Positions 9,741 to 42,816 of a stretch of 64,000 nucleotides of DNA are shown in pieces (the first letter of the stretch is position 1; each line of letters starts with the position of its first letter). The DNA comes from Candidatus Levyibacteriota bacterium (lineage in GTDB: Bacteria > Patescibacteriota > Microgenomatia > Levybacterales > UBA12049), in NCBI GenBank assembly GCA_016182185.1, contig JACOXU010000001.1, positions 274,915 to 338,914 on the forward strand. Direction: 5' to 3'. The position numbers and the translations under genes were made by a program. The notes under the pieces are model-generated. The model ran no database searches. It saw nothing but the letters and a program-made list of their open reading frames with translations, and had not been told where the DNA came from.

Positions 9741-10956
9741 TTGGCCAAAAATAAGCTGTTATAAATACCATCGACAGATACCCCAGATGACTATTGTTTA
9801 AGTATCTTGAAAAATACCAGAAGACAATAAGAAATATTCCATATGCTAATAAAAGTTTTTGAATAGTATTTTCTTTTCTCTGCCATTTTATCAAAAATAT
9901 AATTAGAGGTAATCCAACAGCAACTTGCCAAATCCAAAAGGGATAATAAGAGTAAACATCTGAAATTATGCCGAATTCTTTCAATACTGATCCAAAACCA
10001 TATCCTGATATCGGATAGCTATGGAGAGTATTTCCGGAAAGATAAAAAATAGTACTATCAAGATAGGCTCCCGGGTTCCAGAAAAAAAAGGGCAATACTA
10101 CTGTGGAAAAAGTGATTGCAAAAGGAATAATTTTAATAACTGTTTTTTTGAAATTTTTATTTTTGAAATAAAAGTAGGCAAAGTAAAAAGGGAAAATAGG
10201 CCAAACTGATTGCTTAACTGCAAAAGCAAGAGCTAACAAAATTCCTGCAAGTAAATCTTTCTTTTTATAAAATAAATATAAACCTGCAAGTAAAAACGAG
10301 AACATAAAAATATCATCTCTGCCTTCCAAAAAGTAGCCAAGTGTTGCGGGATTAAATGAAAGTAGTATTAAGAATTGCCGTTTTTTATCCTCATCTTTTA
10401 CCAGTCTTCCTGCTGTAATAAGCATTACAAAAAATAAGAATAAAAGCGGAATTCTCGCATCAAAAAAACCAGGATATCCATGTGCGGTAGCTAAATAAAA
10501 CGGTATAGCAAATAATATATAAAACGGTGGCGTGACAAAATGATAAAGAGCAGGGTTTATCTCCTTATCGGAATAGTTCCATCTTTCAAGCGGAGTTCCA
10601 AAGTATGTGGTTGCGTACGGATTTTTTCCATGCAAAAGGAAACGAATAGCTGATTCCTGCTGAAGTGGCATATCATGAATGCCATATTCAGGAACAGTCT
10701 GATGCCGGACAACAATTGCTGAATAAAAAGCACTTCCTATAATAGTAATTATCAAAATCCACAGTAAGCTATGCTTAATAATATTTAGAATCTTTTCTCT
10801 TAGATTGATTAAGTCAAAAATAATATATAACAAAAGCCCAAAAAAAATTAATCCGAATAACCAGTAAGGGGTGCCTCCGGGGCTTATTCTGTAAGTCATT
10901 ATAAATGGAATAACAAGAGCAAAAAGCAAAATGCTGTCAAGTTTTATATTTTTCAT
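9724..10956 (-). CDS. Polytopic integral membrane protein (possible GT-C/mannosyltransferase-like)
   Basis: 410 aa with 9 or more TM segments. It overlaps its upstream and downstream neighbours. Confidence 0.4.
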   Translation of the reverse strand: MKNIKLDSILLFALVIPFIMTYRISPGGTPYWLFGLIFFGLLLYIIFDLINLREKILNIIKHSLLWILIITIIGSAFYSAIVVRHQTVPEYGIHDMPLQQESAIRFLLHGKNPYATTYFGTPLERWNYSDKEINPALYHFVTPPFYILFAIPFYLATAHGYPGFFDARIPLLFLFFVMLITAGRLVKDEDKKRQFLILLSFNPATLGYFLEGRDDIFMFSFLLAGLYLFYKKKDLLAGILLALAFAVKQSVWPIFPFYFAYFYFKNKNFKKTVIKIIPFAITFSTVVLPFFFWNPGAYLDSTIFYLSGNTLHSYPISGYGFGSVLKEFGIISDVYSYYPFWIWQVAVGLPLIIFLIKWQRKENTIQKLLLAYGIFLIVFWYFSRYLNNSHLGYLSMVFITAYFWPNEKNY

Positions 10957-13361
10957 TATTTTTTAATCTTATGTAAAACAACAGCTAAAAATGAAAATAA
11001 CATTAAACCCAATAAGGTTGATGCTAGTCCAAGCTTGAATGATAATGGTTCGTATTTAAAGGTTACCATATGATTACCCCCCGGAACAACCACGGCTCGG
11101 AAAGAGTAATTAGCTCGATAAATTTTAGTTTTTTGATTATCTATATAAGCATTCCAACCAGGATAGAAATTATCTGAGAGAAAAAGAATAGAATTATTGT
11201 TAGTTTTTGTTTTAACTGAAATTAAATTTGGAGAGTATAAATTAATCTCAGAAGTTCCCTGAAAATCTTCAACCGAACTAAAATTAATTGGATTTTCTTC
11301 TAAAATTACTATTTTGGAAAGGTCTATATTTGGATCAAAAAGAGTATTTAAAATTTCTTGCGGCTTTTCTTTTTTTTCGAATTTCCCTACCAAAAAAGTC
11401 CTTGGCAAAGCAAGTTTATTTCTATATAGCAAAAATTTACCGTCGGACCATATTCTGTTTAAATTACTTCCAACATTATCCTCCTTAGGTTTTAAATCCC
11501 TATCTATTATGTAAGCCACAGAAAGAAGAGATAGTAATCTGTTTCTATAATGATCGCTCTCAATTGTCTCCATGTTCTCGGCAAAAGGGAGTTTGGCATC
11601 TGCCCTTGGTATCTCTTGTGAATATTTTCCTTTATTTGTTCCTGCAAAGAGCAATTCACCATATCTACTGATATAAAAGGAGTCATAACCCTCAGGAGAA
11701 TAAAGATTATAATAAGTTAAAAGATTGGATTCGACATAAGATTTTCCAACACTCCATACCCTACTAACACCGGCTACTCTTTTGGCTTGTTCCAGGATAG
11801 GCAAATTGGGAAAAACAAACTCTCTATCTGAAAAGTACAAATATTTATTTGCAAAGTATAAACTTCCAAAAAGCGAAATTATAATCATGAAATAGGCAAC
11901 ATGATTTGTGATTTTTTTAAAAAAGGCACTAATTAAAATAATAATTATTGACACTAGATAGAAAATAGAAGGAAGAATGAGATTCCTGAAACTTCGAGTC
12001 GCAAACTCACCGGAAGGATCGATAATTCTTTTATAAAAAACAAATCCCCAGGCAGCGATAAAAACAGAAGTTAAAATTAGAATTACTAACATAAAACTTT
12101 TTTTTGATATTTTTTGGGTTAAAAAATAATTTAGACCAAAAGCAGAAAGTACCGAAATCGAAAAAGTACTGATCAAAAAAATTCTTGATGGAATAATAGC
12201 TGATAAAAAGGGCATTTTTGAATAATAAAGCAAGAACCAGCTCGTTGGGAGAGACAGCCCTAAGGATAGCGTTACCAAAAAAACAATTCTAAAAAAAATT
12301 GAATATTTATGAGTTTTCGTCAGTAATGCAAATAAGCCGAAGATTAATCCTGGAATGCCAATATAGAGAACCCTTTCGTAAAAAAATCCTCCCCCAAAAT
12401 AATTATGGACTCCCGGATTCCCAAAAAAATCTGAAGAAATAAAAGTAACTAGTCTGTTTAAGGGGAGAAGGTATAAATCGAAAATAAATTTAGCATCAGT
12501 TGTTCCCCTGGCTGAGTAAATATATGCTTCAAGACTTGGGATTAAATGAATCCCTGCAATCAACAAAGAGATCAAAAATCCTGACAGAATCCAGACTAAT
12601 TTTTTAAAAGTAATTTCCTTTTTAACAAATAGATAAAATAACCAAAGAAAGGAAAAAAGAAATACATATAGACTCGTCTGAAACCAACCTGACAATATCG
12701 ACAAGGTTAATCCGGCAATTAAAATTGAAAAAGAAAAAGCTGAAAGTTTTTTTCTAAAGTTTAATATTGCAAATAGTACGATCGGAAGAAACACTGCCGA
12801 GTAAGTACTCATCAAAGACTCTTCCCACCACGCAATCATGAATCCTGAGAAAGTAAAAACAGTTGCCCCAAAAAAACTAGCTTTTTTATCCAAGGATAAT
12901 TCTTTCAAGAAAAGATACATAAAAACTCCTGTAGTAAGAGGTGTTAAGATAATAATTATTGACCACGCGTCAATTTGAGGCAAAAAAAGAAATAAAAAAC
13001 TTAAGGGATGGAAAGCTGCTGACTGATATGTAGCAAGGAGAGTATTTCCCGAAAAATAATAAGGATTCCAAAGAGGCAATGTAAAATTTTTTATTTGATC
13101 TGTGGTTATTTTTCTTAAAGGATAGAAAATTCTCAAATTATCAAATCCAATGGGCTTGCTGGGAGGACCAGACACATATCCCTTCCACTTATAGGAAGAA
13201 AAAGGTTCATAATAGGAGACAAGAAGATTGCCTGGAATAGGTACTTTTTTTTCAAAAAAATAAGGTTTAAAGAAAAGAAAAGTTAAAGTTATAAAAATAA
13301 GAATAACGAAAAGAATATCTTTCCTCATTATTGGGTAAAGCGGTATTTTAAAAGAGTCCAA
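10956..13361 (-). CDS. YfhO-like GT-C membrane glycosyltransferase, family C paralog
   Basis: 801 aa with an N-terminal TM, an LPLWNPYYFSGNTLLATYQSAAFHPL loop, about 14 TMs and a large C-terminal extracytoplasmic domain, the architecture of YfhO family proteins. Confidence 0.6.
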   Translation of the reverse strand: MDSFKIPLYPIMRKDILFVILIFITLTFLFFKPYFFEKKVPIPGNLLVSYYEPFSSYKWKGYVSGPPSKPIGFDNLRIFYPLRKITTDQIKNFTLPLWNPYYFSGNTLLATYQSAAFHPLSFLFLFLPQIDAWSIIIILTPLTTGVFMYLFLKELSLDKKASFFGATVFTFSGFMIAWWEESLMSTYSAVFLPIVLFAILNFRKKLSAFSFSILIAGLTLSILSGWFQTSLYVFLFSFLWLFYLFVKKEITFKKLVWILSGFLISLLIAGIHLIPSLEAYIYSARGTTDAKFIFDLYLLPLNRLVTFISSDFFGNPGVHNYFGGGFFYERVLYIGIPGLIFGLFALLTKTHKYSIFFRIVFLVTLSLGLSLPTSWFLLYYSKMPFLSAIIPSRIFLISTFSISVLSAFGLNYFLTQKISKKSFMLVILILTSVFIAAWGFVFYKRIIDPSGEFATRSFRNLILPSIFYLVSIIIILISAFFKKITNHVAYFMIIISLFGSLYFANKYLYFSDREFVFPNLPILEQAKRVAGVSRVWSVGKSYVESNLLTYYNLYSPEGYDSFYISRYGELLFAGTNKGKYSQEIPRADAKLPFAENMETIESDHYRNRLLSLLSVAYIIDRDLKPKEDNVGSNLNRIWSDGKFLLYRNKLALPRTFLVGKFEKKEKPQEILNTLFDPNIDLSKIVILEENPINFSSVEDFQGTSEINLYSPNLISVKTKTNNNSILFLSDNFYPGWNAYIDNQKTKIYRANYSFRAVVVPGGNHMVTFKYEPLSFKLGLASTLLGLMLFSFLAVVLHKIKK

Positions 13362-14038
13362 AGAGCAATTGTTCCATCTCTTACAGTATTTAGTTTTTTC
13401 CCCTCACCATAACCCCTTGGTTTAGTTTCTATAGGTATCTCCAAAATTTTATAATCTTTTTTAAGTAATTTTGCCGTAATTTCTGGCTCAAAATCGAAGC
13501 GGCGAGAATTAAGTTTTATATTTTCTAAAGCTTTTTTGGGAAAAAGTTTATAACAGGTTTCCATGTCTGTAATCCACTGACCGTATAAAACGCTTGTAAT
13601 AAGACTTAAAAATCTATTACCAAAATAGTGAAGGAGAAAAAGTGGGCTTTTTTCGTCCTTTGTCAGATTAGGTAACCGGTTAAGTCGTGTGCCATACACG
13701 ACCTTTGCCATTTTTTTTTGAATAGGGATAAAAAGTTTCTTAATATCATTGGGATCATATTCAAGGTCTGCATCTTGAATCACTATATAATCCCCTGAAG
13801 AGTTTTCGATTCCTGTTCGAACCGCAGTGCCTTTTCCTAAATTTTTTTTATGATGAATAATCTTAAGACCCGATATATTAAAGCCTGAAAGTTTTGCTGC
13901 TGTTTTATCAGTTGATCCATCATCAACGACAACAATTTCTTTTTCAGCGTTCGGAATCTTAAGTTTTGTAACTTTTTCAAGAATCTTAGATATTGTCTTT
14001 TCTTCATTAAAGACTGGTATTACAATAGATAATTTCAT
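13328..14038 (-). CDS. GT2 glycosyltransferase, polyprenyl-phosphate sugar synthase-like (DPM1/GtrB/CsbB-like)
   Basis: MKLSIVIPVFNEE...VVDDGSTDKT...IQDADLEYDP. A short GT-A fold enzyme that overlaps the downstream YfhO-like gene by 34 nt. Confidence 0.7.
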   Translation of the reverse strand: MKLSIVIPVFNEEKTISKILEKVTKLKIPNAEKEIVVVDDGSTDKTAAKLSGFNISGLKIIHHKKNLGKGTAVRTGIENSSGDYIVIQDADLEYDPNDIKKLFIPIQKKMAKVVYGTRLNRLPNLTKDEKSPLFLLHYFGNRFLSLITSVLYGQWITDMETCYKLFPKKALENIKLNSRRFDFEPEITAKLLKKDYKILEIPIETKPRGYGEGKKLNTVRDGTIALWTLLKYRFTQ

Positions 14039-14079
14039 AAATTAATCAGCTCGCAATGGCTTTAAGCTAAATCAACGGG

Positions 14080-15009
14080 TCATTCAATAAATTCTGTAAT
14101 TTCTCTATCGGTTTTGCTAAATAATTTTTGAGCCCTGAAACTTGATTTTATAATTTTTGGAAATAAAATTAAAGCCCTAAAAAAACCTAGAAAAAAAGCT
14201 GAGTCTAATCTCAATATTGCCATGATCAAATGATAAGGTAGCCACAATATATGAAGTATTTGTAAATCAAAATCTGTCGCATTTTCCCATACGAAAATAA
14301 ATTGATTTCTGTATGATACTACTTTTATTTCATAATCTGAATATTTACTCTTTATTGATCCTTTTTCATGCTCGTGAACAACGATACTTTTAGGTTCAAA
14401 TTGTATTTTGTATCCTGATTTAAGAGCCCTATAGGAAAGATCAATGTCCTCCCAGTAAAAAGGTGAATAAAGTTCATTAAATCCTGAAAGTTTATCCCAA
14501 ATAAATTTTCTAAATGACCCGCTTCCGCCGCTTACCCAAAGAGTGTCATTTTTACCTACTTCTCCTCTTTGATGGACTAGAAACCCTTTCTGCCATCTGC
14601 CTATGCCTCTACCCCGAAGCACTGCTTTACTCTTCTCAATACTTTTATCCATACAACCTACTGCAAAAATCCTTTCATCATCAAAATGCTCTATCAATGG
14701 CTCAAGAAAATTCTTTTCAGGAGCAACATCCGTATTTAATAGTACTAAAATATCCCCACTTGCATCTTCTACCCCACGATTTACACTTCTTGCAAATCCC
14801 AAATTCCTTTCATTCTTAATTAGTTTGAGGTTTGAGATTTGAGGTTTGAGATTTGAGACTGTTGATATACTTTCATCAGTTGATGCATCATCAACTATTA
14901 TTATTTCCACATCCCCATGATAAAACTTTGCAGCCTCTATAACCCTTGGTAAATTTTTTTTTAGAAGAACTTCTCCATTATAATTTGGAATAATAATACT
15001 TAGATTCAT
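14080..15009 (-). CDS. GT2 family glycosyltransferase
   Basis: MNLSIIIPNYNGEV...IIVDDASTDES...NTD (DXD). It contains a heptamer repeat tract at 14824-14858. Confidence 0.65.
   Translation of the reverse strand: MNLSIIIPNYNGEVLLKKNLPRVIEAAKFYHGDVEIIIVDDASTDESISTVSNLKPQISNLKLIKNERNLGFARSVNRGVEDASGDILVLLNTDVAPEKNFLEPLIEHFDDERIFAVGCMDKSIEKSKAVLRGRGIGRWQKGFLVHQRGEVGKNDTLWVSGGSGSFRKFIWDKLSGFNELYSPFYWEDIDLSYRALKSGYKIQFEPKSIVVHEHEKGSIKSKYSDYEIKVVSYRNQFIFVWENATDFDLQILHILWLPYHLIMAILRLDSAFFLGFFRALILFPKIIKSSFRAQKLFSKTDREITEFIE
14824..14858. repeat. Heptanucleotide tandem repeat (TTTGAGR, 5 units) inside the GT2 gene 14080-15009
   Basis: tttgagg tttgaga tttgagg tttgaga tttgaga. It encodes SNLKPQISNLK. 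Confidence 0.75.
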
Positions 15010-17285
15010 AATAAAGAATTAGAAAAAACTACCTCGTGTTTTCCCTCTTCAATCACAATGCCTCTAAAATCGAAGTTTGTGAGATATATCTTGGTAGATA
15101 CACCATCAATCTCCGCACGCCAAGTTGGATAAAAACTATCAGTCAAAACCAGGAATCCTTTATTCTCATTTTCTGTATTGATAATAATTTTATTAGAACG
15201 ATATTCAACAATATTTACTTTTCCGTTTTTATTACCAACCTGTGAATCTTCAAAGTTTTCAACTATTGCTGTTTTGAAGGGATCGAAATCGGATCTAAAT
15301 ATCTCATTAATTGCCTCTGTTTTACCAGCAACATTTTTCACTTCATTGACAAAAAAAGCTCGAGGTAGTACATTTTTATTTTCATAAACTCTTGCTTCTC
15401 CTTCCTGAAAAACTTTAACTAAAGCACCTGATTTAAGATCAGCCAAACTTAGAATATATTTAACTCCCAAAAGATCTATAATTTTCGAAGAATAATTATA
15501 CGGAGTAATAATTCTATTGAAGCCAAACGGAGGTTTGATGTTCGGCACTCCTCTTTTTGATGCAGTAATTAATTCAGCATATCTGCGTAAATATAAAGGG
15601 TCATAACCTTCTATGCTCTGGATTTTATATATTATCGAAAAGTTAGGAGGCAAAATTCTTGAATCCGTACTCATAACTCTAAAATTATCATTTTTTTCTT
15701 GAAGGAAGGACAAAATTTTCGTTTGTGGAAATAAATAATCTTTTTTTGTAAAAGGCGTGAATTTCCAGCCGGCTCTAAACAAATCAAAAATAGTTATGGA
15801 TAATACTAGAACGGAAAAAACAAGAAAAACATTTTTGTTTTTTTTATGAAAAAAAATATAAAAAAATATTGATAAACTAGACAAAAGAAAAATTAGAGTC
15901 GGTAAGACAATATTTCTTTTTGCAACGAGTAAGTTATCAATAATTAAATTTTTATCGATGTTTCTTCCGTAATAAACAAATAACCAAAGACAAATTAATA
16001 TTATCAAAATAAATATGATCGGATGGAAAATTTCCTTCTTATTTTTCATTTTCAAGAAGTAGTCAAAACCAAATGAAGCAAGAACTGCCAAAGAAAAATC
16101 AGTCAGAAATAGCAATCGCGTAGGTTGGGTTGTATTTATAAAAGGAATGTTTAGAATAAAAGGAATTTTCGCAAATATTGTTGGGAGTGCAAGAATAAGT
16201 GAGAGAAAAAATATTGTACCAAAAAATAGAGTTTTCCTATCGCGACGAAAGAAAAGAGAATACAGGGAAAAAATAAGCGGAAAGACACCGATATAACCTA
16301 AAAATTCTCCATAATTCCATTCTCCCCAGTAATTAAGCGTCGTAGGGTTTCCAAAAAAATCAGGAGCAATAAATTGAATTAAATTCTGCCAGGGAATAAA
16401 CCAACCGGGGTTTTGCCATGGAATTTGATCAACGCTTCGCGCTGAAAATAAAATAAATTGAAAGAGCGGATACCACTGAACGAAAGTTAATATAAAAAAT
16501 AAAAGATAAAAAATCAAAAAAATAAACAAAATTTTTTTTATTCTACCGTACTGAGCCCATCTTACAATTAAGTACACCGTAGAAGTAATAAATAAATAGA
16601 AGAATGTTTGCAAATGTCCCGCAAAGAATGCTGATGTCAGAGAAAGTACGAATATTAAACCCCAAATTAAAAAATTTTTATTTTTGATACTTAATACTGA
16701 ATACTTAATACTGAATACTATTTTATCCGTCGCTAATAATATAAGGGGTAGCCAAAGAGCGGTATGCAGGATTGTGTTCCATTCCATCCAAGCAATCGAA
16801 AATCCGGAAAATGAGAATGTAATCGAACCTATTATACCTGCCCATCTATTTAATTTAAAATTATTTAGATATAAAAATAAAAATATTCCAGCTAAAAGAG
16901 GCTGGAGAATAATTAGAATACTCCAAGAGAAATTAAATGGGAGTATAAAAAATAATAAATTTAACGGATAAAGTGCTGCCGATTGGTGATTTGCCAAAAG
17001 CGGTGTTCCTGCAAAATTATACGGATTCCATAATGGCAGCTCTAAGTTCTTCTCAAGATTAATTGCTAAATACCTCCATGGGTATTGCTGCCTCACTGGA
17101 TCCGTAATCAGGAAATTTTTAAATGGCACTCCTCGAGGAAATTCTTTTGAGTATAAATCGCGGAATGGATGATAAAGCCCTACAATTGTGTCGGATGGAA
17201 TAGGATACAAACTTTTAAAAATAAATTGCCAAAAAAATGTAAAAGCAATAAAAATTATAAAAAATATTGGTAATAATCTTTTCAC
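15006..17285 (-). CDS. YfhO-like GT-C membrane glycosyltransferase, family C paralog
   Basis: 759 aa with LPLWNPYNFAGTPLLANHQSAALYPL and the same architecture as 10956-13361. It overlaps the GT2 gene by 4 nt. Confidence 0.6.
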   Translation of the reverse strand: MKRLLPIFFIIFIAFTFFWQFIFKSLYPIPSDTIVGLYHPFRDLYSKEFPRGVPFKNFLITDPVRQQYPWRYLAINLEKNLELPLWNPYNFAGTPLLANHQSAALYPLNLLFFILPFNFSWSILIILQPLLAGIFLFLYLNNFKLNRWAGIIGSITFSFSGFSIAWMEWNTILHTALWLPLILLATDKIVFSIKYSVLSIKNKNFLIWGLIFVLSLTSAFFAGHLQTFFYLFITSTVYLIVRWAQYGRIKKILFIFLIFYLLFFILTFVQWYPLFQFILFSARSVDQIPWQNPGWFIPWQNLIQFIAPDFFGNPTTLNYWGEWNYGEFLGYIGVFPLIFSLYSLFFRRDRKTLFFGTIFFLSLILALPTIFAKIPFILNIPFINTTQPTRLLFLTDFSLAVLASFGFDYFLKMKNKKEIFHPIIFILIILICLWLFVYYGRNIDKNLIIDNLLVAKRNIVLPTLIFLLSSLSIFFYIFFHKKNKNVFLVFSVLVLSITIFDLFRAGWKFTPFTKKDYLFPQTKILSFLQEKNDNFRVMSTDSRILPPNFSIIYKIQSIEGYDPLYLRRYAELITASKRGVPNIKPPFGFNRIITPYNYSSKIIDLLGVKYILSLADLKSGALVKVFQEGEARVYENKNVLPRAFFVNEVKNVAGKTEAINEIFRSDFDPFKTAIVENFEDSQVGNKNGKVNIVEYRSNKIIINTENENKGFLVLTDSFYPTWRAEIDGVSTKIYLTNFDFRGIVIEEGKHEVVFSNSLL
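16687..16721. repeat. Heptanucleotide tandem repeat (ATACTKA, 5 units) inside the YfhO-like gene 15006-17285
   Basis: atactta atactga atactta atactga atactat. It encodes SIKYSVLSIKN. Confidence 0.7.
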
Positions 17286-18349: not shown

Positions 18350-18412
18350 GAGTTAATTCTACCAACTTTTATACTCCTTGCAAAGTTATTTGAGCTATGA
18401 TATCGTCAGAAT

Positions 18413-18664
18413 ATGAATTATTTTGATTCGCTTAATCAGATTTCACCCCTTGCTCTCTTTGCAGTATTCCTCTGGTCACTCTTGTGGAAAGGCGTTGCCT
18501 TGTGGAGAGCTGTAAAAAATGATCAAAGAAATTGGTTTATTGCAATCCTTGTTATCAATTCAATTGGAATACTCGAAATTACTTACCTTTTTGGATTCGC
18601 GAAAAAAAAGATGAAATTAGAAGAACTTAAATTTTGGGAATTACTTCAAAAATCTTCTTCTTGA
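18413..18664 (+). CDS. Small 2-TM membrane protein of unknown function, plus-strand ORF embedded in the minus-strand cluster
   Basis: 83 aa with two hydrophobic helices. It is convergent with the 3' end of the YfhO-like gene at 18641-21004 and overlaps it by 24 nt. Confidence 0.35.
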   Translation: MNYFDSLNQISPLALFAVFLWSLLWKGVALWRAVKNDQRNWFIAILVINSIGILEITYLFGFAKKKMKLEELKFWELLQKSSS

Positions 18665-21004
18665 TAATACTGTACTTACTATAGTAATTAATATTAAACC
18701 CGTAAAAAAACTATATATTCCAACTCTAAAACTTAGCGGATTATAGGTAAATTCAACAGTGTGTTTTCCCTTTGATACAGGAACTGCCCTAAAGATATAA
18801 TCTGCCCTATAGACTTCTGATTTTCTTCCGTCAACGTAAGCCTCCCAACCCTTGTAATAAACGTCAGATAAAAACAGCAGGCCATCGTCATTTGTGTCAA
18901 CCGATATTTTTATCTTATTTGGAGTATAACTTATAATTTCTGCATTACCAATCTCTCCTTCAGACTGCTGAATACTTGGATTTTTCTCAAGAATAATTTC
19001 GTTTCTTAAATTAAAATTGTCGCTAAACATAGTACTTAAAATTTTTTGATCGTCCTGAATAACTCTGTACTTTCCAACCATAAATACTCTTGGAAATACC
19101 TCTTTATTTTCAAAAAATTTATAGTGTTTATCAGCGTAAACCAATTTAAATCTATCTTGAGGGTATTTCCAGACTGGAAATGTCCAACCCATATTGTCAT
19201 CAGAAATTTTATGAATGATATATTTTATTCCCAATAAATTAATAGAATCGGATGTGGATTTTCCATCTCTTGAGAAAATAACTACTGATGCCCATAATTC
19301 ATCTCTTAATCCCGCATTTATAAATGAAATAAACTCTCCATATCTTTTTATATAAACTGCATCATAACCCTCAATAGACGGAACTTTATAGTAAACCAAG
19401 GCCTCGGCTCCAAGATTTCCCAAGACCCTTTCATAGCCCGAAATTCTTTTAAACTCCTGCGTTGTTTTCGTATCTGGAAAAACTAAATGTTTTGGATCAA
19501 ATGCTTGCCATTTTATGGCAAAACGAAGCATGTCAAAAGAAACAATAAAAAGAAAAAATAAAGATAAAAATGAAAGTATTAATCCTTTATTGTCTTTAGT
19601 CTTTTTAAGATATAAAACGGAAAAAAGAACAGATATAGATACCAGAATAAAAAGCCCTGTCGGAAGAATTAAATTTTGCCGTGCCACCACCAGCCTGTCT
19701 TGGGGGATGTATATCCTGAAAACAACTATCAACCAAAGTAATGAAAAAACAACAGTAAAAGATCCTATCCAAATTAAAATTTTTTTAATCTTATATTTTT
19801 TTATATCAACTAATAGTTCCTCTAATCCAAATGCTGCAAGAATTGCGAATAAAAAACTATAAACTACGATAATTCTGCTTGCGGCACTTGTTGATAAAAC
19901 TGGAATATGAAGATTTACCAGAAAAGTTAATAAGGGTGTGTTAAAAGCCAAAAGTAAAATAAAAATACCAAATATGAATAAAAAAAATGTTTGAACTTTT
20001 TTTTTACTTGTTAATCCATAAATAGAGAGGATTAAAGGCAAAACTCCAATATAACCATTCCACTCAGCATAGTGGCCAAACCAATCATTCCTAGTTATTG
20101 GGTTACCAAAAAAATCAGGTGCAATAAAAGTTGCAATATATTCCCAAGGAATTATCTCTCCTACCCTGAATAGTCCACTCCTGAAAGTTTGAAAATATAA
20201 TTCTATAGAAGGAAAAAGTTGGGGTGATGACAATAATACTCCTAAAAAAGTGTAAGATATTAAATACAGTGCATGATAGATATTTTTACTAACAATTGAT
20301 TTGTAAAAAATATAAATTACAACTGTCAGCAAGAAATATAAACTCATTTGAAAATGGCCACTAAAAAATGATAAAGGAATTGTAATGCTTAAAAGTGCAA
20401 GGAATATAATTTTCTTTTCCTTAATATAATTTTCTATGGCAAATATAGCCAGAGGTAAAAATAAAATTGCGTAAGCAAGTGTTCCATATCCCATCCAAAC
20501 TGTAATAAACCCGCAAAACATAAAAGAAATCGATGAGATCAGGCCTATTAACTTACTAAAATTAAAAGCTCTAATGAGCAAATACATAAATAACCCTGCC
20601 AGTAGAGGTTGAAGAAGTATTAAAATACTCCATGCATCAATAAAGGGCAAGATAAAAAATAAAAAGTTAAATGGAGAAAAAACAGCAGACTGGTAATTTG
20701 CAAGATGAGGCGTTCCTGAAAAACTGTATGGATTCCAAAGAGGAACTTGTCCGCTCTTCAAAGTATCGATAGTAAAATATTTCCAAGGATAAATTTGCGT
20801 AATAACGTCTGGCATTGCACCATTTTTGACTGGCCCCCAGAATTCTGGATATGCGCTCCAAGGCGCAAAATTATTTACTTGATAAGTCGAAGTAAACGGA
20901 ACTCTGTTTTGCAAAAAATACGGACTTGCAAATATAAACCAGATTATTACGAGAACTAACAATGGCCAAGTTTTTAGCAAAAATTTTTGAATTTTAAATT
21001 TCAC
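18641..21004 (-). CDS. YfhO-like GT-C membrane glycosyltransferase, family C paralog
   Basis: 787 aa with VPLWNPYSFSGTPHLANYQSAVFSPF and a multi-TM region followed by a C-terminal domain. Confidence 0.6.
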   Translation of the reverse strand: MKFKIQKFLLKTWPLLVLVIIWFIFASPYFLQNRVPFTSTYQVNNFAPWSAYPEFWGPVKNGAMPDVITQIYPWKYFTIDTLKSGQVPLWNPYSFSGTPHLANYQSAVFSPFNFLFFILPFIDAWSILILLQPLLAGLFMYLLIRAFNFSKLIGLISSISFMFCGFITVWMGYGTLAYAILFLPLAIFAIENYIKEKKIIFLALLSITIPLSFFSGHFQMSLYFLLTVVIYIFYKSIVSKNIYHALYLISYTFLGVLLSSPQLFPSIELYFQTFRSGLFRVGEIIPWEYIATFIAPDFFGNPITRNDWFGHYAEWNGYIGVLPLILSIYGLTSKKKVQTFFLFIFGIFILLLAFNTPLLTFLVNLHIPVLSTSAASRIIVVYSFLFAILAAFGLEELLVDIKKYKIKKILIWIGSFTVVFSLLWLIVVFRIYIPQDRLVVARQNLILPTGLFILVSISVLFSVLYLKKTKDNKGLILSFLSLFFLFIVSFDMLRFAIKWQAFDPKHLVFPDTKTTQEFKRISGYERVLGNLGAEALVYYKVPSIEGYDAVYIKRYGEFISFINAGLRDELWASVVIFSRDGKSTSDSINLLGIKYIIHKISDDNMGWTFPVWKYPQDRFKLVYADKHYKFFENKEVFPRVFMVGKYRVIQDDQKILSTMFSDNFNLRNEIILEKNPSIQQSEGEIGNAEIISYTPNKIKISVDTNDDGLLFLSDVYYKGWEAYVDGRKSEVYRADYIFRAVPVSKGKHTVEFTYNPLSFRVGIYSFFTGLILITIVSTVLSRRRFLK

Positions 21005-21006
21005 TT

Positions 21007-21795
21007 TTAATTTTTTTTTGGGTTAATTTTAACTTTATTCTGAAACTCCCAAAGTCTTGCATAGGTAATAAAAATGCTAAAAGCCTGATAAATACTCTCA
21101 ATGATCCCTGCGGTGCCTGCTTTCCATCCGCTTTGTTTTATATAAGAATCTAAAAAGGCAGAAAGCATCACTCTGGGAAAACGCCACCATGTCATTTTGG
21201 GATGATTGTTGCTAAATTTAAGACCCGCCTCAATTTCCGACCAGCTTAATGTTTTTGTAACCATTGATGATAGGTCATGATGAGTAAAGTGGAGAAGAAA
21301 ACCCTCTAATTCTTTTATATCTCCATCAAAGATTGGACTCTCATGAAGCTTACCTTTCCATGATTTCAATTTTTTCCTTAAAAATAATCTTTCCATTTTT
21401 TCTATATAGGGCCATTCATGATTTCCAAAGTAAAAATTCTTTCTCTTGAATCTATAGGAAACAATGCCATTTCTAAAATTATTCACTGCCAAACTTATTT
21501 CTTCCCTAAGTTTTTCCGATACTCTTTCATCTGCATCAACATACAAAATCCACTCAAAAGATGCTTTTTCAAGACCAAAATTTCTAAGATCAGAGAAACT
21601 ATCTGATTTTAAACTGAAAACCTTAGCTCCCATCTTATGAGCTATTTCACAGGTTTTATCCTGAGAATTGTTGTCAACAATAATAATCTCGTCGCAGAAA
21701 GAAATTGACTCTATGCAATCTTTAATCTTCTCTTCTTCATTTTTGGTAATTACAACAGCAGATATCTTACTCATATTGAAAACTTCCTTTTCCAA
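21007..21795 (-). CDS. GT2 family glycosyltransferase
   Basis: MSKISAVVITKNEEEKIKDCIESI...IIIVDNNSQDKT...VDADE. A paralog of 22689-23588. Confidence 0.65.
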   Translation of the reverse strand: MEKEVFNMSKISAVVITKNEEEKIKDCIESISFCDEIIIVDNNSQDKTCEIAHKMGAKVFSLKSDSFSDLRNFGLEKASFEWILYVDADERVSEKLREEISLAVNNFRNGIVSYRFKRKNFYFGNHEWPYIEKMERLFLRKKLKSWKGKLHESPIFDGDIKELEGFLLHFTHHDLSSMVTKTLSWSEIEAGLKFSNNHPKMTWWRFPRVMLSAFLDSYIKQSGWKAGTAGIIESIYQAFSIFITYARLWEFQNKVKINPKKN

Positions 21796-22687: not shown

Positions 22688-22688
22688 T

Positions 22689-23588
22689 TTATTTATTCAA
22701 AAAGCGGTAGATAATTTTTTTGATTGGACTTTTTGTTTGATTTATTTTTACCTCCAAAAACCAATGCTTAAACTCGATACCAAAATTCTTTAACTCTTTT
22801 TCTAATTCAGTTAATAAATTATTATCTGAGATATCTTTAAAACCGAGTTTTTGCCAAATATTTATAAATATAACTAAATGATAAAAAGCCATAAGTATAG
22901 ATAAGGCAATGCCATGTAAACCGTCTTTATATCCTTTTCTTGCAAAAAACCTGCTCAAAAATTCCTTAATCGGAAATCTTATTATATCTTGCCATTTTAA
23001 TTCGTACCCATTCTTAATAAGTTGAGTTGCTTCATTTTCTGTATAAATAATTAATTTTTGCAAAAACTGGGTAATAGTTTCATAATTTCTATGAATCATT
23101 GGGTTTTTAAGATATTCAGACTTTCCCTCAAGCTTTATCATCTCATGAACATGTTTCTCCTCAAATTTCCCTTTATTTCTTCTAAATAATCTTAATTGAT
23201 GATCAGGGTACCAACCGGTATGTTCAATCCATTTCCCGAAAATTATGTTTTTTCGAGGAACCCAATAACCATTTATTTTGGCATTCGATGCTTTAAGCGT
23301 GGATTTAATTTCACCAACTAAATCATCTGAAATTTCTTCATCAGCATCTAATGACAGTATCCAATCACCGGTTGCCTTTGTGAAACCGAAGTTTTTATTT
23401 ACATTAAGCATCGGATTATTGGGTCTTTTAAAAATTTTAGAAGTAAATTTTTGGGCAATTTCTACTGTTCTATCAGCGGACATATTATCTACCAGGATAA
23501 TCTCATCGGCAAACCTAACTGATTCAAGACAATCTTTAATCTTACTTTCTTCATTAAACGCTGAAATTACTACAGAAAGTTTTGTCAT
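22689..23588 (-). CDS. GT2 family glycosyltransferase
   Basis: MTKLSVVISAFNEESKIKDCLESV...ILVDNMSADRT...LDADE. Confidence 0.65.
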   Translation of the reverse strand: MTKLSVVISAFNEESKIKDCLESVRFADEIILVDNMSADRTVEIAQKFTSKIFKRPNNPMLNVNKNFGFTKATGDWILSLDADEEISDDLVGEIKSTLKASNAKINGYWVPRKNIIFGKWIEHTGWYPDHQLRLFRRNKGKFEEKHVHEMIKLEGKSEYLKNPMIHRNYETITQFLQKLIIYTENEATQLIKNGYELKWQDIIRFPIKEFLSRFFARKGYKDGLHGIALSILMAFYHLVIFINIWQKLGFKDISDNNLLTELEKELKNFGIEFKHWFLEVKINQTKSPIKKIIYRFLNK

Positions 23589-23593
23589 ATAAT

Positions 23594-25045
23594 TTATGTT
23601 AAGTTTTCTTTTATTAGATTTATATCTGCTATCAATTCTTTCTTTGCAATTAAGAATATTAATCCAAAATATAGTATAGCACCCATCATGATCATTATCA
23701 GTAAAGTTACAATATTCCTTACTATCAATGGGCTAAGAAAATAAATAACAACACCCATTACCAATGTGCAGAATGCAGGATATTTAATTATTGTGAAGAT
23801 GTTGAAATCTATGTGTTTTTTTGCTAAATAAACAACTACTCCTAGTGAAAGAGCAATAAAAGCTGATGCTGCTGATACACCATTGAAACCAAAAATAACT
23901 ATAGCTATGGGGGTCAATATCCAGGTTGCAATAGTCCAAAAAACCATCAAATATAATGTAATTTTAATTTTTCCTATCGCGTTTAAAGCGTTTGTCAATG
24001 GCGTTGAGATTGATGACAAGACTGCGTTTAAAGAGAAAAGAGATAAGGATATTAATGCGGGTTCCCATTTTGTATATTTAGGAATAATCTTAACAAAATA
24101 AGGAAATAAAACTATAAGCCCCATGAGAGAAGGGAAAATTAAAAAGCTGGAAGCAAAAATTGATTTCTCTAGTGCCTTACTAAGAATATTTTTATCATGC
24201 TGAAGTCTTGAAAAAGACGGAAATGTTATACGTATTACGTTATCCATTATCAAGCGCAGTGGAGTAAATGCCCATTTTTGGGCAAAACCTATGTAGCCTA
24301 CCTGAGCAATGGGTAGAACTTTTCCAAGATATGCTATCAAAAGATCATCCTTAATAAGAGCCAGAAAACTATTCATCTGAAAAGGGACTCCAAATGATAA
24401 AAGTTTCGAGGCTGATTTTTTTGAAAATCCAAATCTTATTCTCCAGGGACTAATGATATAGATTGTTATAAGTCCCGATAGTCCCCTTGCCAAAACTGCC
24501 AAGGAAAAACTGGTCACCCCGAACCCATTTATAGCAAGCAGAACTACAATAACGTTAAAAAAAATGTTTTCTACTATTTGAGGGACAACTAATTTTTCAA
24601 AATTTAAGTTTCTTTCAAGAATAATCGAAGGAATTGTCTTAAGCGAAGAAAGAAAAAAAGAAACAATCAACGCCTGAAATAAAAACACTCCATCATTCCC
24701 CAGATTATAAAAAGACTTAATAAAATTAGAAGAAAGTAATGCAATCACGACAAGAGTTGCAACAAGAATTTGCTGGATTGTAAACGTTGTTGAGAGATCC
24801 TCATCCGTTATTGCTTCTTTCTTTTGAATTAATGCTGCGGCAAGTCCAATATCTGAAAAGTATGAAAGAAAGGCAATTGCGGCAGAAACTACAAAAAATA
24901 CACCAAAAACAGACGGGGAAAGAAAAATTGTAAGAAGAAAGTTTGCACCAAATCCCAAAATTTGTATTGCAAAAGTACGATAAACCAAGGCAAAAATTCC
25001 ACGAACTGATCTTTTTGTGATTAGAGCAAGATCAACTTCTTCCAT
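23594..25045 (-). CDS. Wzx-like polysaccharide/oligosaccharide flippase (MOP superfamily)
   Basis: 483 aa with about 12-14 TM segments and no soluble domains. It sits between GT2 genes, as flippases typically do in glycan clusters. Confidence 0.5.
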   Translation of the reverse strand: MEEVDLALITKRSVRGIFALVYRTFAIQILGFGANFLLTIFLSPSVFGVFFVVSAAIAFLSYFSDIGLAAALIQKKEAITDEDLSTTFTIQQILVATLVVIALLSSNFIKSFYNLGNDGVFLFQALIVSFFLSSLKTIPSIILERNLNFEKLVVPQIVENIFFNVIVVLLAINGFGVTSFSLAVLARGLSGLITIYIISPWRIRFGFSKKSASKLLSFGVPFQMNSFLALIKDDLLIAYLGKVLPIAQVGYIGFAQKWAFTPLRLIMDNVIRITFPSFSRLQHDKNILSKALEKSIFASSFLIFPSLMGLIVLFPYFVKIIPKYTKWEPALISLSLFSLNAVLSSISTPLTNALNAIGKIKITLYLMVFWTIATWILTPIAIVIFGFNGVSAASAFIALSLGVVVYLAKKHIDFNIFTIIKYPAFCTLVMGVVIYFLSPLIVRNIVTLLIMIMMGAILYFGLIFLIAKKELIADINLIKENLT

Positions 25046-25745
25046 AATTCAGATCTTTCCATAAAATAAAACTCTCTTTTATTGCTCGCAAAATTACTCT
25101 TAGATTCCCTCCGCTTTGATCTCCATAAATTCTAGGATAGTGAGATACATTCACCTGACTTATTTTAAGTTTTTCTTTTTTGGCCTTGGCTAATATCTCT
25201 GTCGTAATCATTGCGCCCTCTGATCTTAGAGGGGTAATTCTTTCAAGTGCCTGTTTTTTAAACATTTTAAATCCGCAATCAATATCTCTGAAAACGAAAC
25301 CAAAAAATACGAAATCCCAAATCTTGAGTAGATTCATTAAGATATGTCTAATAGGATGATCGTGTCTTTTCTGCCTGTAGCCAATTACTATATCCGAGTT
25401 TTTAATTTTAGGAAAAAATCTTGAAACTTGGGAAAAATCAAATTGACCGTCACCGTCCGTAAATACAACCAGGTTATATTTTGCTGCCTCAAAACCTGAC
25501 CTGAGTGAGGCACCGTAGCCACGATTTATTTTATGAGCAACGACCTTAAGATTAGAGTCTTTTCCTGCAATGCTTGTGGCAATTTTTAAAGTATCATCAG
25601 ATGAACCGTCATCCACCATGATTATCTCCCAATCCTGAGCACTTTTTTTTGCAACTCTAATTGCACTGTCAACAACCTTTTCAATATTTTTTTCTTCGTT
25701 CCAAAAAGGGAAAAAAATAGAAAGTTCAGCGATTTTTTTGTCCAT
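25032..25745 (-). CDS. GT2 glycosyltransferase, GtrB/DPM1-like polyprenyl-phosphate sugar synthase
   Basis: LSIFFPFWNEEKNI...IIMVDDGSSDDT...VFTDGDGQFD. Confidence 0.7.
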   Translation of the reverse strand: MDKKIAELSIFFPFWNEEKNIEKVVDSAIRVAKKSAQDWEIIMVDDGSSDDTLKIATSIAGKDSNLKVVAHKINRGYGASLRSGFEAAKYNLVVFTDGDGQFDFSQVSRFFPKIKNSDIVIGYRQKRHDHPIRHILMNLLKIWDFVFFGFVFRDIDCGFKMFKKQALERITPLRSEGAMITTEILAKAKKEKLKISQVNVSHYPRIYGDQSGGNLRVILRAIKESFILWKDLNYGRS

Positions 25746-27459
25746 AGACTATTTTTCTAGTAGAAAAGATTATACCAATAATAAATACAAATAAGCCAGT
25801 AAGTGAGAGGGCATTGGCGAATTTCTCAATAGACGTTTGAACAAATTCTGCATACAATTCATGCCTTCCCGGCTCAATTATCAGGCTTATTCCATTCTCT
25901 AAAATGCTGGGTGTTGTTTTTTTACCATCTATGTAAAATTGCCACGCAGGAAAATAAGCTATATTTAATTGTATTTCTGATCGCTTTGAAATATCAAAAA
26001 AATAGCGAAGAGTTTTCGAATTTTCTAATTCAAAAAGTGTTCTTCCCTCATCCTCCTTAATTTCAATGATTTTACTGGGAATATCTTCTCTATTCCTAGG
26101 TTTGTTAAAGCCTTTTGGCATGTATTCATCTGAAATCTTTGATATTCTCCATCTTAAATTACTAGGACTTGTATAATCTTTTTCTGTTTTAAACTCTGTT
26201 GTTTGGGGATTAAAGAGTTTTGCATTAAAGAAGATAAGAGAAAATAACAAAATAGATACAACGAGAGGTATAATAAATTTGTTGGTCTTAAGCGTTTTGA
26301 GCTTTTTTTCCGTAAACCATAGAAAAAATCCTGTAAGAACTGCTGAAAAGAACGAAGTCAACAAAAGAAATCTCCACGGATACTGAAAAAATGCCATAAG
26401 AGGAATCTGTTCCCAAATAGGCTTTGAAATCTCAAGCATCAAAAAAATTGATAATAGTATTCCGGCTGTAGAAAAAAATGTAAATAATATCGTATTTTTG
26501 TACTTATCATTGTCAAATTTTGTTTTTAATACAAGCCATATTAAGCTTAAAAAGCCAAGAAGAGACAGTAGTAAATGCATCTTGCCAATCTTAAATGATA
26601 ATCCGTCTATGCAACCGGGTGCTGACCCTCCAAAGCCCCAGGGACTTTGCCAAAGCTGCTCAACACAAACAAAGTGATCTCGAAAATCCGCTCCTCCTCC
26701 AATTTGAGAAATTACATTTGTATATTTCATCTCAAAAAGTGCAGGAATCCAGTAAAATGCAGAAATCATTAAGCCTAGAACTATAGCAATTAGCGGATTG
26801 ATGAAAGTATTTATTCTTTTTTCTCTATAATAATTTAAAAAATAAAATAATATGAAAACCAATATGAAAGGCGTGATCATCATTGCGGTTAAGTTATGTG
26901 AAAGAATGACCCCTGCGTAACTTATTGCACCAATTGCGATATATTTCCATTTTTTTTCAAAAGCACTCCTCAAGAGTCCATAAAAAACAAGTGGAATAAA
27001 AGTATATGCCCAGGATTCTGAAATATCCCCTCTAATATAAATGTCTAAGGCGTGGAATGGGGCATACATATAAAAAAGAGCTGATGTGACACCTGCAATT
27101 TTCCCAAATAGGTAAGATGTTAATATATACATAAAAATTCCAGAAAGGATAATTCCTAAGCCCATTATAATTTTTGTTGAAATTAAAGCATCAAAACCAA
27201 AAATATTTATAATTGACCCTGCATAATATGTAAGGGGTGCATAGAAATTAAAAATCGGATAACCGTATCCGTATCCAAGATCAGGAACCCATCTGACCGG
27301 AAACTGTCCATCTAGAAGAGCCAGTTTCATTTCAAATACCCTTGCCACTTGAGTATCATCGTGTATGGGAAAGAATCCGGGATTAAAAAGAGGTTTTATT
27401 GTCAAAAAAGAAAGTATAATAACAAACAGAAAAGGTGCAATTTTTTTAAAAAAAATCAT
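25726..27459 (-). CDS. Family B polytopic membrane protein (GT-C-like)
   Basis: 577 aa with PIHDDTQVARVFEMKLALLDGQFPVRWVPDLGYGYGYPIFNFYAPLTYY. Confidence 0.55.
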   Translation of the reverse strand: MIFFKKIAPFLFVIILSFLTIKPLFNPGFFPIHDDTQVARVFEMKLALLDGQFPVRWVPDLGYGYGYPIFNFYAPLTYYAGSIINIFGFDALISTKIIMGLGIILSGIFMYILTSYLFGKIAGVTSALFYMYAPFHALDIYIRGDISESWAYTFIPLVFYGLLRSAFEKKWKYIAIGAISYAGVILSHNLTAMMITPFILVFILFYFLNYYREKRINTFINPLIAIVLGLMISAFYWIPALFEMKYTNVISQIGGGADFRDHFVCVEQLWQSPWGFGGSAPGCIDGLSFKIGKMHLLLSLLGFLSLIWLVLKTKFDNDKYKNTILFTFFSTAGILLSIFLMLEISKPIWEQIPLMAFFQYPWRFLLLTSFFSAVLTGFFLWFTEKKLKTLKTNKFIIPLVVSILLFSLIFFNAKLFNPQTTEFKTEKDYTSPSNLRWRISKISDEYMPKGFNKPRNREDIPSKIIEIKEDEGRTLFELENSKTLRYFFDISKRSEIQLNIAYFPAWQFYIDGKKTTPSILENGISLIIEPGRHELYAEFVQTSIEKFANALSLTGLFVFIIGIIFSTRKIVYGQKNR

Positions 27460-42321: not shown

Positions 42322-42323
42322 CT

Positions 42324-42812: not shown

Positions 42813-42816
42813 TTTA

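Follow-up and report, generated by a model that had tools for sequence, protein, structure and literature searches.

The 64,000-nucleotide (nt) window analysed here, a stretch of a contig from a Candidatus Levyibacteriota bacterium, carries a minus-strand glycosylation cluster of at least 38 kb (1-38283) that begins at the left window edge (Table 1). An earlier note on this DNA had drawn attention to its central part, 10956-27459, as four recurrent modules in which a short glycosyltransferase of family 2 (GT2), of the DPM1/GtrB/CsbB type, is coupled to a large membrane glycosyltransferase of the GT-C class. All twelve open reading frames named there are present on the minus strand where it placed them. 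The pattern is not confined to that region; the cluster runs from the left edge to 38283, with a third GT2 of the polyprenyl-phosphate sugar synthase type at its head (37519-38283). It comprises no fewer than 16 GT-C genes (four long YfhO, four short YfhO/PTPS, six PMT_2 and two GT87-like), one unclassified protein with ten transmembrane (TM) segments, seven GT2 genes (three for TM-less proteins of the donor synthase type and four others), one GT4 gene and one Wzx-type flippase gene. The cluster spans about 38 kb, or about 6% of the 617-kb contig, and since the partial PMT_2-type gene at 1-1297 crosses the left edge, it extends beyond the window. With the exception of this edge-cut gene, all cluster genes in the window are intact reading frames of family-typical length with their loop motifs kept.

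Table 1. Genes of the glycosylation cluster, with the matches that define them (aa, amino acids).
Feature	Coordinates	Strand	Evidence
Partial PMT_2-type GT-C (family C)	1-1297	-	432-aa open frame, ATG at 1297, runs off left edge; 33-40% identity to other family C genes
Family C GT-C (PMT/PMT_2, ArnT/Pmt-like), 557 aa	1316-2989	-	Pfam PMT 33.2, PMT_2 33.0 bits; multi-TM; invariant DE in first loop
Family C GT-C (PMT_2), 554 aa	2986-4650	-	Pfam PMT_2 36.4 bits; 35% identity to 1316-2989
Family C GT-C (PMT_2), 556 aa	4661-6331	-	Pfam PMT_2 32.1 bits
Family B GT-C (short YfhO/PTPS_related), 545 aa	6328-7965	-	Pfam YfhO 41.3 bits; 32-36% identity to other family B genes
Protein X, unclassified 10-TM, candidate GT-C, 567 aa	8037-9740	-	No Pfam, NCBIfam or PDB match
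Family D GT-C (GT87-like), 410 aa	9724-10956	-	Pfam GT87 31.4 bits; weak MptA_B_family match on identical protein in a Logan contig
Family A GT-C (long YfhO), likely 790 aa from ATG 13328	10956-13361	-	Pfam YfhO 64.7 bits
dpm3, TM-less polyprenyl-phosphate sugar synthase-type GT2, 236 aa	13328-14038	-	DPMS 5mlz best PDB match; DAD motif
gt2g, ppGalNAc-T/EpsD-type GT2, 309 aa	14080-15009	-	NCBIfam EpsD, MftF, PgaC; WEDIDLSYR motif
Family A GT-C (long YfhO), 759 aa, core conserved	15006-17285	-	Pfam YfhO 80.2 bits
GT4 (GT-B fold) cytoplasmic glycosyltransferase, 355 aa	17282-18349	-	Pfam Glycos_transf_1 66.4 bits
DUF5652 small 2-TM protein, 83 aa	18413-18664	+	Pfam DUF5652 E=2.4e-22
Family A GT-C (long YfhO), 787 aa, core conserved	18641-21004	-	Pfam YfhO 106.8 bits
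SunS/GmaR-like GT2, 262 aa	21007-21795	-	PDB GmaR 3e-17, SunS-like 7msk 1.5e-10; NCBIfam TIGR04283, SunS
Rhamnosyltransferase-subfamily-like GT2, 306 aa	21767-22687	-	NCBIfam TIGR01556 84.8 bits (below cut-off 200.55); YYEDADF motif
SunS/GmaR-like GT2, 299 aa	22689-23588	-	Paralogue of 21007-21795, 35% identity over 247 aa
MOP/Wzx-type flippase, 483 aa	23594-25045	-	Pfam Polysacc_synt_3 E=9.6e-48; NCBIfam MOP flippase; about 12-14 hydrophobic segments
dpm2, TM-less polyprenyl-phosphate sugar synthase-type GT2, 237 aa	25032-25745	-	ArnC best PDB matches; NCBIfam PgfS, ArnC, AglJ, PpgS
Family B GT-C (PTPS_related/YfhO), 577 aa	25726-27459	-	Pfam PTPS_related 48.2, YfhO 33.1 bits
Family B GT-C, 517 aa	27456-29009	-	Pfam PTPS_related 41.3 bits
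Family C GT-C (PMT_2-like), 576 aa	29012-30742	-	33-35% identity to other family C genes; PMT_2 20.9 bits, below cut-off
Family A GT-C (long YfhO), 789 aa	30735-33104	-	Pfam YfhO 97.5 bits
Family B GT-C, 552 aa	33108-34766	-	Pfam PTPS_related 29.3 bits
C2, PMT_2/PMT GT-C, 505 aa	34781-36298	-	Pfam PMT_2 54, PMT 31.9 bits
Family D GT-C (GT87-like), 401 aa	36314-37519	-	Pfam GT87 24.5 bits (25-bit cut-off narrowly missed); weak similarity to 9724-10956
dpm1, TM-less polyprenyl-phosphate sugar synthase-type GT2, 254 aa, cluster head	37519-38283	-	DPMS 1e-17 best PDB match, then GtrB, ArnC

Membrane glycosyltransferases and gene junctions

The large membrane proteins were sorted into families by all-against-all BLAST. 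Family A comprises four long YfhO proteins of 759-801 aa, family B four shorter YfhO/PTPS_related proteins of 517-577 aa, family C the PMT_2-type proteins, including the more distant one at 34781 and the edge copy, and family D two GT87-like proteins of about 400 aa. All family A proteins exceed the gathering threshold of Pfam YfhO (PF09586, 28.5 bits), with scores of 64.7-106.8 bits, which confirms the YfhO assignment made previously for 10956-13361, 15006-17285 and 18641-21004. In family B the proteins at 6328 and 25726 exceed the threshold, the one at 27456-29009 falls below it (22.8 bits), and 33108-34766 has no YfhO match in Pfam, where it is recognised as PTPS_related only. The placing of 25726-27459 in family B, through its PTPS_related and YfhO matches, and of 23594-25045 among the MOP/Wzx flippases was likewise upheld. 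By Pfam membership families A to D are classed as GT-C, some members marginally, and protein X is not.

GT-C enzymes are marked by 8-13 TM helices and, in a loop outside the membrane, by a conserved acidic motif that resembles DxD (PMC8035078). Consistent with this hallmark, an invariant acidic residue is found in the first loop after TM1, as FD in family A, HD in family B and DE in family C. By hydropathy scan, 8 to 15 hydrophobic segments are predicted in each of the putative GT-C proteins. Protein X also carries an invariant motif after TM1, H-x-x-Y-P-D-E-F-D-N, and has 322 homologues, of which those listed are all hypothetical or unnamed and have no Pfam domain. It matched nothing in Pfam or NCBIfam, and hhalign comparisons, with the single sequence and with a profile, revealed no relation to families A and C. 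A 37-sequence profile searched against the PDB returned only spurious matches to GABA-receptor TM segments. Protein X may represent an undescribed GT-C-like family.

The overlaps and gaps on which the four modules had been founded are arithmetically right: there is a 4-nt overlap at 15006-15009, a 2-nt gap at 21005-21006, a 20-nt overlap at 25726-25745 and a 14-nt overlap with the flippase gene at 25032-25045. The 34-nt overlap at 13328-13361, between dpm3 and the YfhO gene 10956-13361, presupposes the TTG start of the longest reading frame at 13361. Gene callers place the start at the ATG at 13328 (790 aa) in four independent assemblies with an identical GT2. The junction then reads TAATG, in which the YfhO ATG has one base in common with the GT2 stop, and the two genes abut under either start.

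Such tight coupling does not, as had been supposed, single out the GT2/GT-C pairs. Overlaps occur at 13 of the 24 cluster junctions, 23 of the 24 are 71 nt or shorter, and the junctions between two GT-C genes or two GT2 genes are no looser than those between GT2 and GT-C. When the order of the 25 cluster genes was shuffled, 9.0±1.9 GT2/GT-C adjacencies were expected, and 5 are observed (P(≤5)=0.04). Since this is fewer than random orderings give, there is no statistical signal for recurrent modules inside the window, and any real signal must come from GT2 subtype and from other genomes. Gene overlap was rejected as evidence for modules once all 24 junctions had been measured and the gene order permuted. 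One way to read the region is as four independent two- or three-gene modules, each with its own synthase and its own GT-C enzyme and each making a distinct decoration. This reading draws on the fact that every GT2 gene named in the note adjoins a GT-C gene with an overlap or a tiny gap; the cluster-wide tightness and the adjacency count below random expectation both speak against it.

The cluster has a single large gap, and in it lies the small antisense DUF5652 gene, which is divergent from GT4 and encodes a protein with two TM segments. Its position and orientation are kept in 30 related loci, at 45-85% identity. The gene interrupts the cluster and divides it into two or more transcription units. 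Scans for promoters and terminators at these breaks gave weak consensus matches only, such as, upstream of the GT4 gene, TTGCAA-N16-TAGAAT at 18383-18356 with a TG upstream of it, and these were not used as evidence. Rfam showed no structured RNA in the cluster beyond a flanking tRNA. The GC content is about 30-34% in the cluster (1-38000) and about 35-40% in the housekeeping flank (38000-64000), a difference that could reflect the amino-acid bias of membrane proteins or a distinct history.

Putative donor synthases and other cytoplasmic glycosyltransferases

The Pfam domain Glycos_transf_2 is present in all four short GT2 proteins that had been called DPM1/GtrB/CsbB-like, and two of them, dpm3 and dpm2, are of the synthase type. 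In sequence searches of the PDB, residues 1-228 of dpm3 align to Pyrococcus DPMS (5mlz) and next to GtrB and ArnC, and residues 5-218 of dpm2 align to ArnC. The alignment is shortest in dpm1, about 165 residues (9-173) to DPMS, GtrB and ArnC; its residues 10-236 align to the NCBIfam AglJ model. Similarity to solved polyprenyl-phosphate glycosyltransferases covers essentially the whole catalytic domain, acceptor half included, in dpm2 and dpm3; dpm1, with its AglJ alignment, is placed in the class too. The top NCBIfam matches of the three are AglJ, PpgS, PgfS, ArnC and a dolichyl-phosphate (Dol-P) hexose transferase, many of them aligned over the full length and all scoring far under the equivalog cut-offs. 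Structure models were made with AlphaFold2 for two proteins, dpm3 and gt2g. The dpm3 model (mean predicted local distance difference test score, pLDDT, 87) has ArnC, GtrB or DPMS as each of its top 24 Foldseek matches in the PDB.

The DxD motif reads DAD, DGD or DMD in the three dpm sequences, and a D-x-x-C-G/Y-F/K motif is also found in all of them. Their mutual identity is 28-33% over the full length, and each belongs to a separate orthologue group that has a distinct set of conserved neighbours. By sequence and fold criteria dpm1, dpm2 and dpm3 are of the polyprenyl-phosphate glycosyltransferase type, as a minority variant that lacks the usual membrane anchor.

The remaining GT2 proteins are of other kinds. 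The 309-aa gt2g has the length of GtrB, and it had been a candidate on this ground and through one hydrophobic C-terminal segment, but structure prediction and fold search ruled it out. Only its residues 1-118, the N-terminal nucleotide-binding half, align to DPMS. The best sequence matches are EpsD and MftF in NCBIfam and chondroitin synthase and ppGalNAc-T2 in the PDB. Its model (pLDDT 86) superimposes on ppGalNAc-T catalytic domains at a TM-score of about 0.75, and none of DPMS, GtrB and ArnC is among its top 50 structural matches. The GT2 at 21007-21795 best matches GmaR and SunS-like enzymes, resembles synthases in its N-terminal nucleotide-binding half only, and has no synthase among its 8 PDB matches. 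Neither of these two proteins has the whole-domain similarity to synthases seen in the dpm proteins. The paralogue at 22689-23588 also matches GmaR, SunS-type enzymes and TIGR04283. Judged by their sequence relationships, the five cytoplasmic transferases (two SunS/GmaR-like, one rhamnosyltransferase-like, one ppGalNAc-T-like and one GT4) are not donor synthases. Two of the four proposed modules therefore have a GT2 that is not of the synthase type.

Gene order in related genomes

An alignment search with family A found 78 loci, nearly all from Levybacteria/Levyibacteriota, Gottesmanbacteria, Woesebacteria or unclassified Patescibacteria. Their reading frames of at least 150 aa, from simple open reading frame calling, were classed by best BLAST match to the window genes. 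About 40 of the 78 loci share the block B-B-dpm-flip-sunS-rha-sunS-A-gt4-A-gt2g-(variable)-dpm, and the fuller order is [dpm-D-C2-A-(C-C)]-B-B-dpm-flip-sunS-rha-sunS-A-gt4-A-gt2g-(variable)-dpm-(variable GT-C). About 12 genes make up this conserved unit. Several records with a Microgenomates-type cluster, among them L005, L025, L010 and L017, are titled "uncultured Gammaproteobacteria", "Pacearchaeota archaeon" or "Sulfotelmatobacter", and are probably mislabelled or misbinned metagenome-assembled genomes.

Adjacencies were counted for non-edge genes in the classed loci. The GT4 gene is followed by a family A gene in 43 of 43 cases, a family A gene directly precedes gt2g in 41 of 45, and the flippase gene comes directly after a dpm gene in 34 of 37. 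There are 26 cases of a SunS-like GT2 immediately upstream of a family A gene and 31 of family B preceding a dpm gene. A family A gene directly adjoins a dpm gene in only 3 of 112. When the dpm genes were split into orthologue groups at 45% identity or more, each group had its own setting. The flippase gene follows dpm2 in 20/20 loci and family B precedes dpm2 in 17/20; a GT87-like gene follows dpm1 in 7/7. For dpm3, gt2g lies upstream within two genes and a long YfhO gene within three in 27/29; dpm3 keeps its place two genes downstream of YfhO 15006. A long YfhO gene comes next, as 10956-13361 does in the window, in 2/29 only.

Conservation of the GT2/GT-C pairings across related genomes, without which the note held its modules to be refuted, can be read from these counts as gene order, which does not by itself establish functional pairing. 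The trio of family B 25726-27459, dpm2 and the flippase 23594-25045 holds for both synthase type and synteny. The pairing of gt2g with YfhO 15006-17285 and that of the SunS-like GT2 21007-21795 with YfhO 18641-21004 are conserved, but with a GT2 of another type. The dpm3 protein is of the synthase type, but its pairing with YfhO 10956-13361, the sole pair of a YfhO gene and a synthase-type gene among the four, is not conserved (2/29). Only the dpm2 trio survives both tests. It is also the only one of the four to have a flippase beside its synthase and GT-C genes, the window's single Wzx-type flippase. That three of the four adjacencies are conserved favours independent modules; a conserved unit as large as about 12 genes, with three synthases set against at least 16 GT-C enzymes, argues the other way, and the modular reading is very unlikely. 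Nor does the step from four copies to four sugar decorations stand, since a single conserved block holds three synthase orthologue groups (one of them outside 10956-27459), one flippase and 16 or more GT-C genes. More generally, GT2/GT-C adjacency does not identify a Gtr-like module; GT2 subtype and cross-genome synteny do.

Conservation differs between the parts of the block. The synthases are its most conserved genes, with median identities of 65-67% for dpm2 and dpm3 and a conservation of 65-79% for the three; the two core YfhO genes (15006 and 18641) and the core transferases are intermediate (47-54%), and many peripheral GT-C genes are at 35-45% with varying copy number. Between gt2g and dpm3 lies a slot of 41 nt that is empty in the window. 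Relatives carry variable inserts in it: a S-adenosylmethionine methyltransferase in 8 loci, a DUF2079 membrane protein in 6 and a Pfam-less membrane protein of about 640 aa in 6 (for example L054:16536-17399, L042:13214-14650 and L045:15827-17770). The slot looks like a diversification hotspot inside the conserved block.

These variable genes, together with peripheral GT-C genes that differ in number and identity between relatives, would fit an array of mostly redundant or decaying tandem duplicates without distinct functions, a hypervariable island in flux under phage or host pressure. Such an origin is highly improbable given that the window genes are intact and keep their family-typical length and loop motifs. 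In addition, the paralogues within the window are 28-36% identical, more distant than many cross-genome orthologues (medians 35-63%), and many have orthologues in other species at medians of 45-63%. The duplications are therefore mostly old and retained. By this measure of divergence the window paralogues predate the species splits and are retained distinct enzymes, not recent duplicates.

To the right of the cluster, on the opposite strand and beyond two small genes and a tRNA-Glu gene, lie type IV pilus genes (39584-45239, +), which encode a PilB-like ATPase, a PilC-like platform protein, two N_methyl pilin-like proteins and a 662-aa LVIVD-repeat protein. This pilus cluster was considered as a conserved neighbour and candidate acceptor and was rejected, as the 78 loci gave no match to PilB, PilC or a pilin; Lon alone is shared, by 4 of them.

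Proposed pathway and comparison with known systems

The analysis shows the gene families, the fold class of two GT2 proteins, the topology, the paralogy and the cross-genome synteny; statements on enzymatic activities, the matching of donors to GT-C enzymes, the sugar identities, the acceptor and the flippase cargo are inferred. It is fairly probable that the locus encodes one integrated multi-component transmembrane glycosylation system, of which the region 10956-27459 is the central part. First, dpm1, dpm2 and dpm3 would each use a nucleotide sugar to charge polyprenyl phosphate with a sugar at the membrane's inner face. Second, the lipid-linked sugars would be flipped, for which 23594-25045 is the only candidate in the window, perhaps joined by further flippases. 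Third, at least 16 GT-C enzymes of distinct specificities would transfer the sugars outside the membrane onto surface acceptors, which could be a polysaccharide, a teichoic-acid-like polymer or proteins. Fourth, the GT2 and GT4 enzymes that are not synthases would most likely build or extend the acceptor glycan, or glycosylate the acceptor from inside. The cluster's membrane glycosyltransferases probably serve to decorate the surface of the cell. Gram-positive systems offer precedents for the three-step scheme, for flippases of the Wzx type and for GT-A variants that are soluble (PMC8035078). YfhO-family enzymes move sugars from undecaprenyl-phosphate (Und-P) sugars to teichoic acids (PMC8035078) and in streptococci also to proteins (bioRxiv 10.1101/2024.05.05.592596). 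The three-component logic that the earlier note had invoked is the best available model for the locus as a whole, but not as four repeated modules.

Several observations weigh against an integrated system of this kind. No TM segment was found in dpm1, dpm2 or dpm3 by hydropathy scan; what they have is one helix around residues 132-152, amphipathic or hydrophobic, and another at the C terminus. No dedicated membrane partner was found, there being no adjacent same-strand gene for a small membrane protein. The usual anchor in this GT2 class is a set of C-terminal TM helices, two in GtrB, ArnC and CsbB and four in PfDPMS. TM-less synthases include PpgS and human DPM1. A further precedent is GacI, which works with GacJ (PMC8035078). 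Since TM-less members are already known, the missing anchor makes the dpm genes a variant and does not exclude them from the class. Sequence searches of the PDB gave no match for families A and B, whose GT-C fold is deduced from Pfam membership and the published HHpred assignments for YfhO. No GtrA-type protein is present in the window, which leaves the flippase count at one, and no priming phosphoglycosyltransferase, Wzy, Wzy_C, ligase or LCP was found among the window reading frames scanned. The 78 loci are related genomes, and the counts drawn from them are not independent events. Finally, the core YfhO genes have as their best-conserved neighbours GT4, gt2g and SunS-like genes, none of them synthases, which a simple model of donors feeding GT-C enzymes does not explain.

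An oligosaccharide pathway of the archaeal Agl or Wzx-dependent kind would explain these neighbours. A dpm enzyme would prime a polyprenyl monophosphate with the first sugar, and the SunS-like, rhamnosyltransferase-like, gt2g and GT4 enzymes would extend it in the cytoplasm. The MOP flippase would export the lipid-linked oligosaccharide, one or more YfhO-type GT-C proteins would act as oligosaccharyltransferase, polymerase or ligase, and the other GT-C enzymes would add side sugars outside. The best NCBIfam match of dpm3 is indeed AglJ (121 bits, against about 69 for the next), the five non-synthase cytoplasmic transferases and the flippase are interleaved in fixed order with the two most conserved YfhO genes, and the window has neither a priming phosphoglycosyltransferase nor Wzy. 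But the AglJ score is far under the model cut-off of 325, and the priming enzyme could sit elsewhere in the genome, as could other genes of a Wzx/Wzy pathway. No YfhO-family protein is known to transfer oligosaccharides en bloc. This pathway is the main rival to the integrated system, and it is unlikely overall. About 17 kb from the cluster, adjacent genes at 55170-56122 (-) encode a DAGK_prokar protein of the DgkA/undecaprenol kinase type (E=2e-32) and a weakly matching PAP2 phosphatase; they are plausible polyprenyl-phosphate recycling enzymes.

A bolder extension of the integrated system is possible but doubtful. A Microgenomates surface glycan might be built almost wholly outside the membrane, from three lipid-linked monosaccharide donors by an assembly line of at least 16 GT-C enzymes, with protein X as a new GT-C-like family and the YfhO proteins as backbone-building or ligase-like enzymes working with the cytoplasmic GT4 and GT2, and not as mere decorators. 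This would parallel the assembly of mycobacterial arabinan and mannan, but from one conserved block of about 38 kb.

Multi-component transmembrane glycosylation systems known from Firmicutes include CsbB/YfhO/GtcA, GtlA/GtlB, GacI-J-K-L, Csd and Gts (PMC8035078). The integrated system proposed here shares with them, and with the Gtr O-antigen systems, a GtrB/ArnC/DPM1-type GT-A enzyme, a flippase and a GT-C with many TM segments from the YfhO or PMT_2 families, and the trio of family B, dpm2 and flippase resembles GacI/GacK/GacL in its use of a Wzx-type flippase. It differs in its TM-less synthases, with no GacJ-like partner identified in the window, and in the ratio of synthases to flippases to GT-C enzymes, which is 3:1:≥16 in one locus and not a set of 1:1 pairs. 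It differs also in that no GtrA-type flippase is present in the window, that the core YfhO genes have beside them GT2 and GT4 genes that are not synthases, and that the host is a candidate phyla radiation (CPR) bacterium with a genome probably below 1 Mb. In streptococci, protein O-glycosylation by GtrB/PgtC2 and PgfS/PgfM1/PgfM2 employs a YfhO-family GT-C and an Und-P-sugar from a GtrB/PgfS-type GT2 (bioRxiv 10.1101/2024.05.05.592596). The NCBIfam PgfS model gives good scores for both dpm2 and dpm1, but the streptococcal synthases are membrane-anchored and their systems have one or two GT-C genes.

In the mycobacterial and corynebacterial envelope, donors made by Ppm1 or PpgS serve many GT-C enzymes (PimE/MptA-type GT87, Pmt, Emb/Aft). 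TM-less synthases are known there (PpgS and the catalytic domain of Ppm1), the genes are dispersed, and the set is not known to include a YfhO-type GT-C. The likeness is that a few lipid-linked monosaccharide donors feed many GT-C paralogues and that the synthases are TM-less; GT87-like and PMT-type genes lie beside dpm1, and dpm3 aligns over its full length to NCBIfam PpgS. Unlike in mycobacteria, the GT87 matches are weak (31.4 and 24.5 bits), the genes form one operon-like block and YfhO-type GT-C enzymes are present; no arabinan or mannan chemistry is implied for this cluster. N-glycosylation in Haloferax volcanii uses AglJ, AglG, AglI, AglE and AglD, the flippase AglR, AglS and AglB, with AglJ as the Dol-P hexose primer. 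AglJ is the best match of dpm3, and there too several GT2 genes, a Wzx-like flippase and a Dol-P-sugar-dependent GT-C are clustered, whereas the present cluster has no AglB/STT3 homologue, its scores are far below the equivalog cut-offs and its host is a bacterium.

A literature search on GT-C or YfhO clusters in CPR, Patescibacteria, Microgenomates and Levybacteria, made in one collection of papers, found none that was relevant. CPR bacteria have minimal genomes and depend on cell contact, and almost nothing is known of their surface chemistry. That a conserved block of about 38 kb, some 6% of the 617-kb contig, is given to at least 16 GT-C genes suggests that a surface glycan is central to the biology of this lineage. 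The three small soluble synthases are orthologue-defined targets that are easy to express for heterologous biochemistry. Compared with the known systems, all components come from known families, and what sets the locus apart is its 3:1:≥16 stoichiometry, its single conserved block of at least 38 kb and its host lineage.

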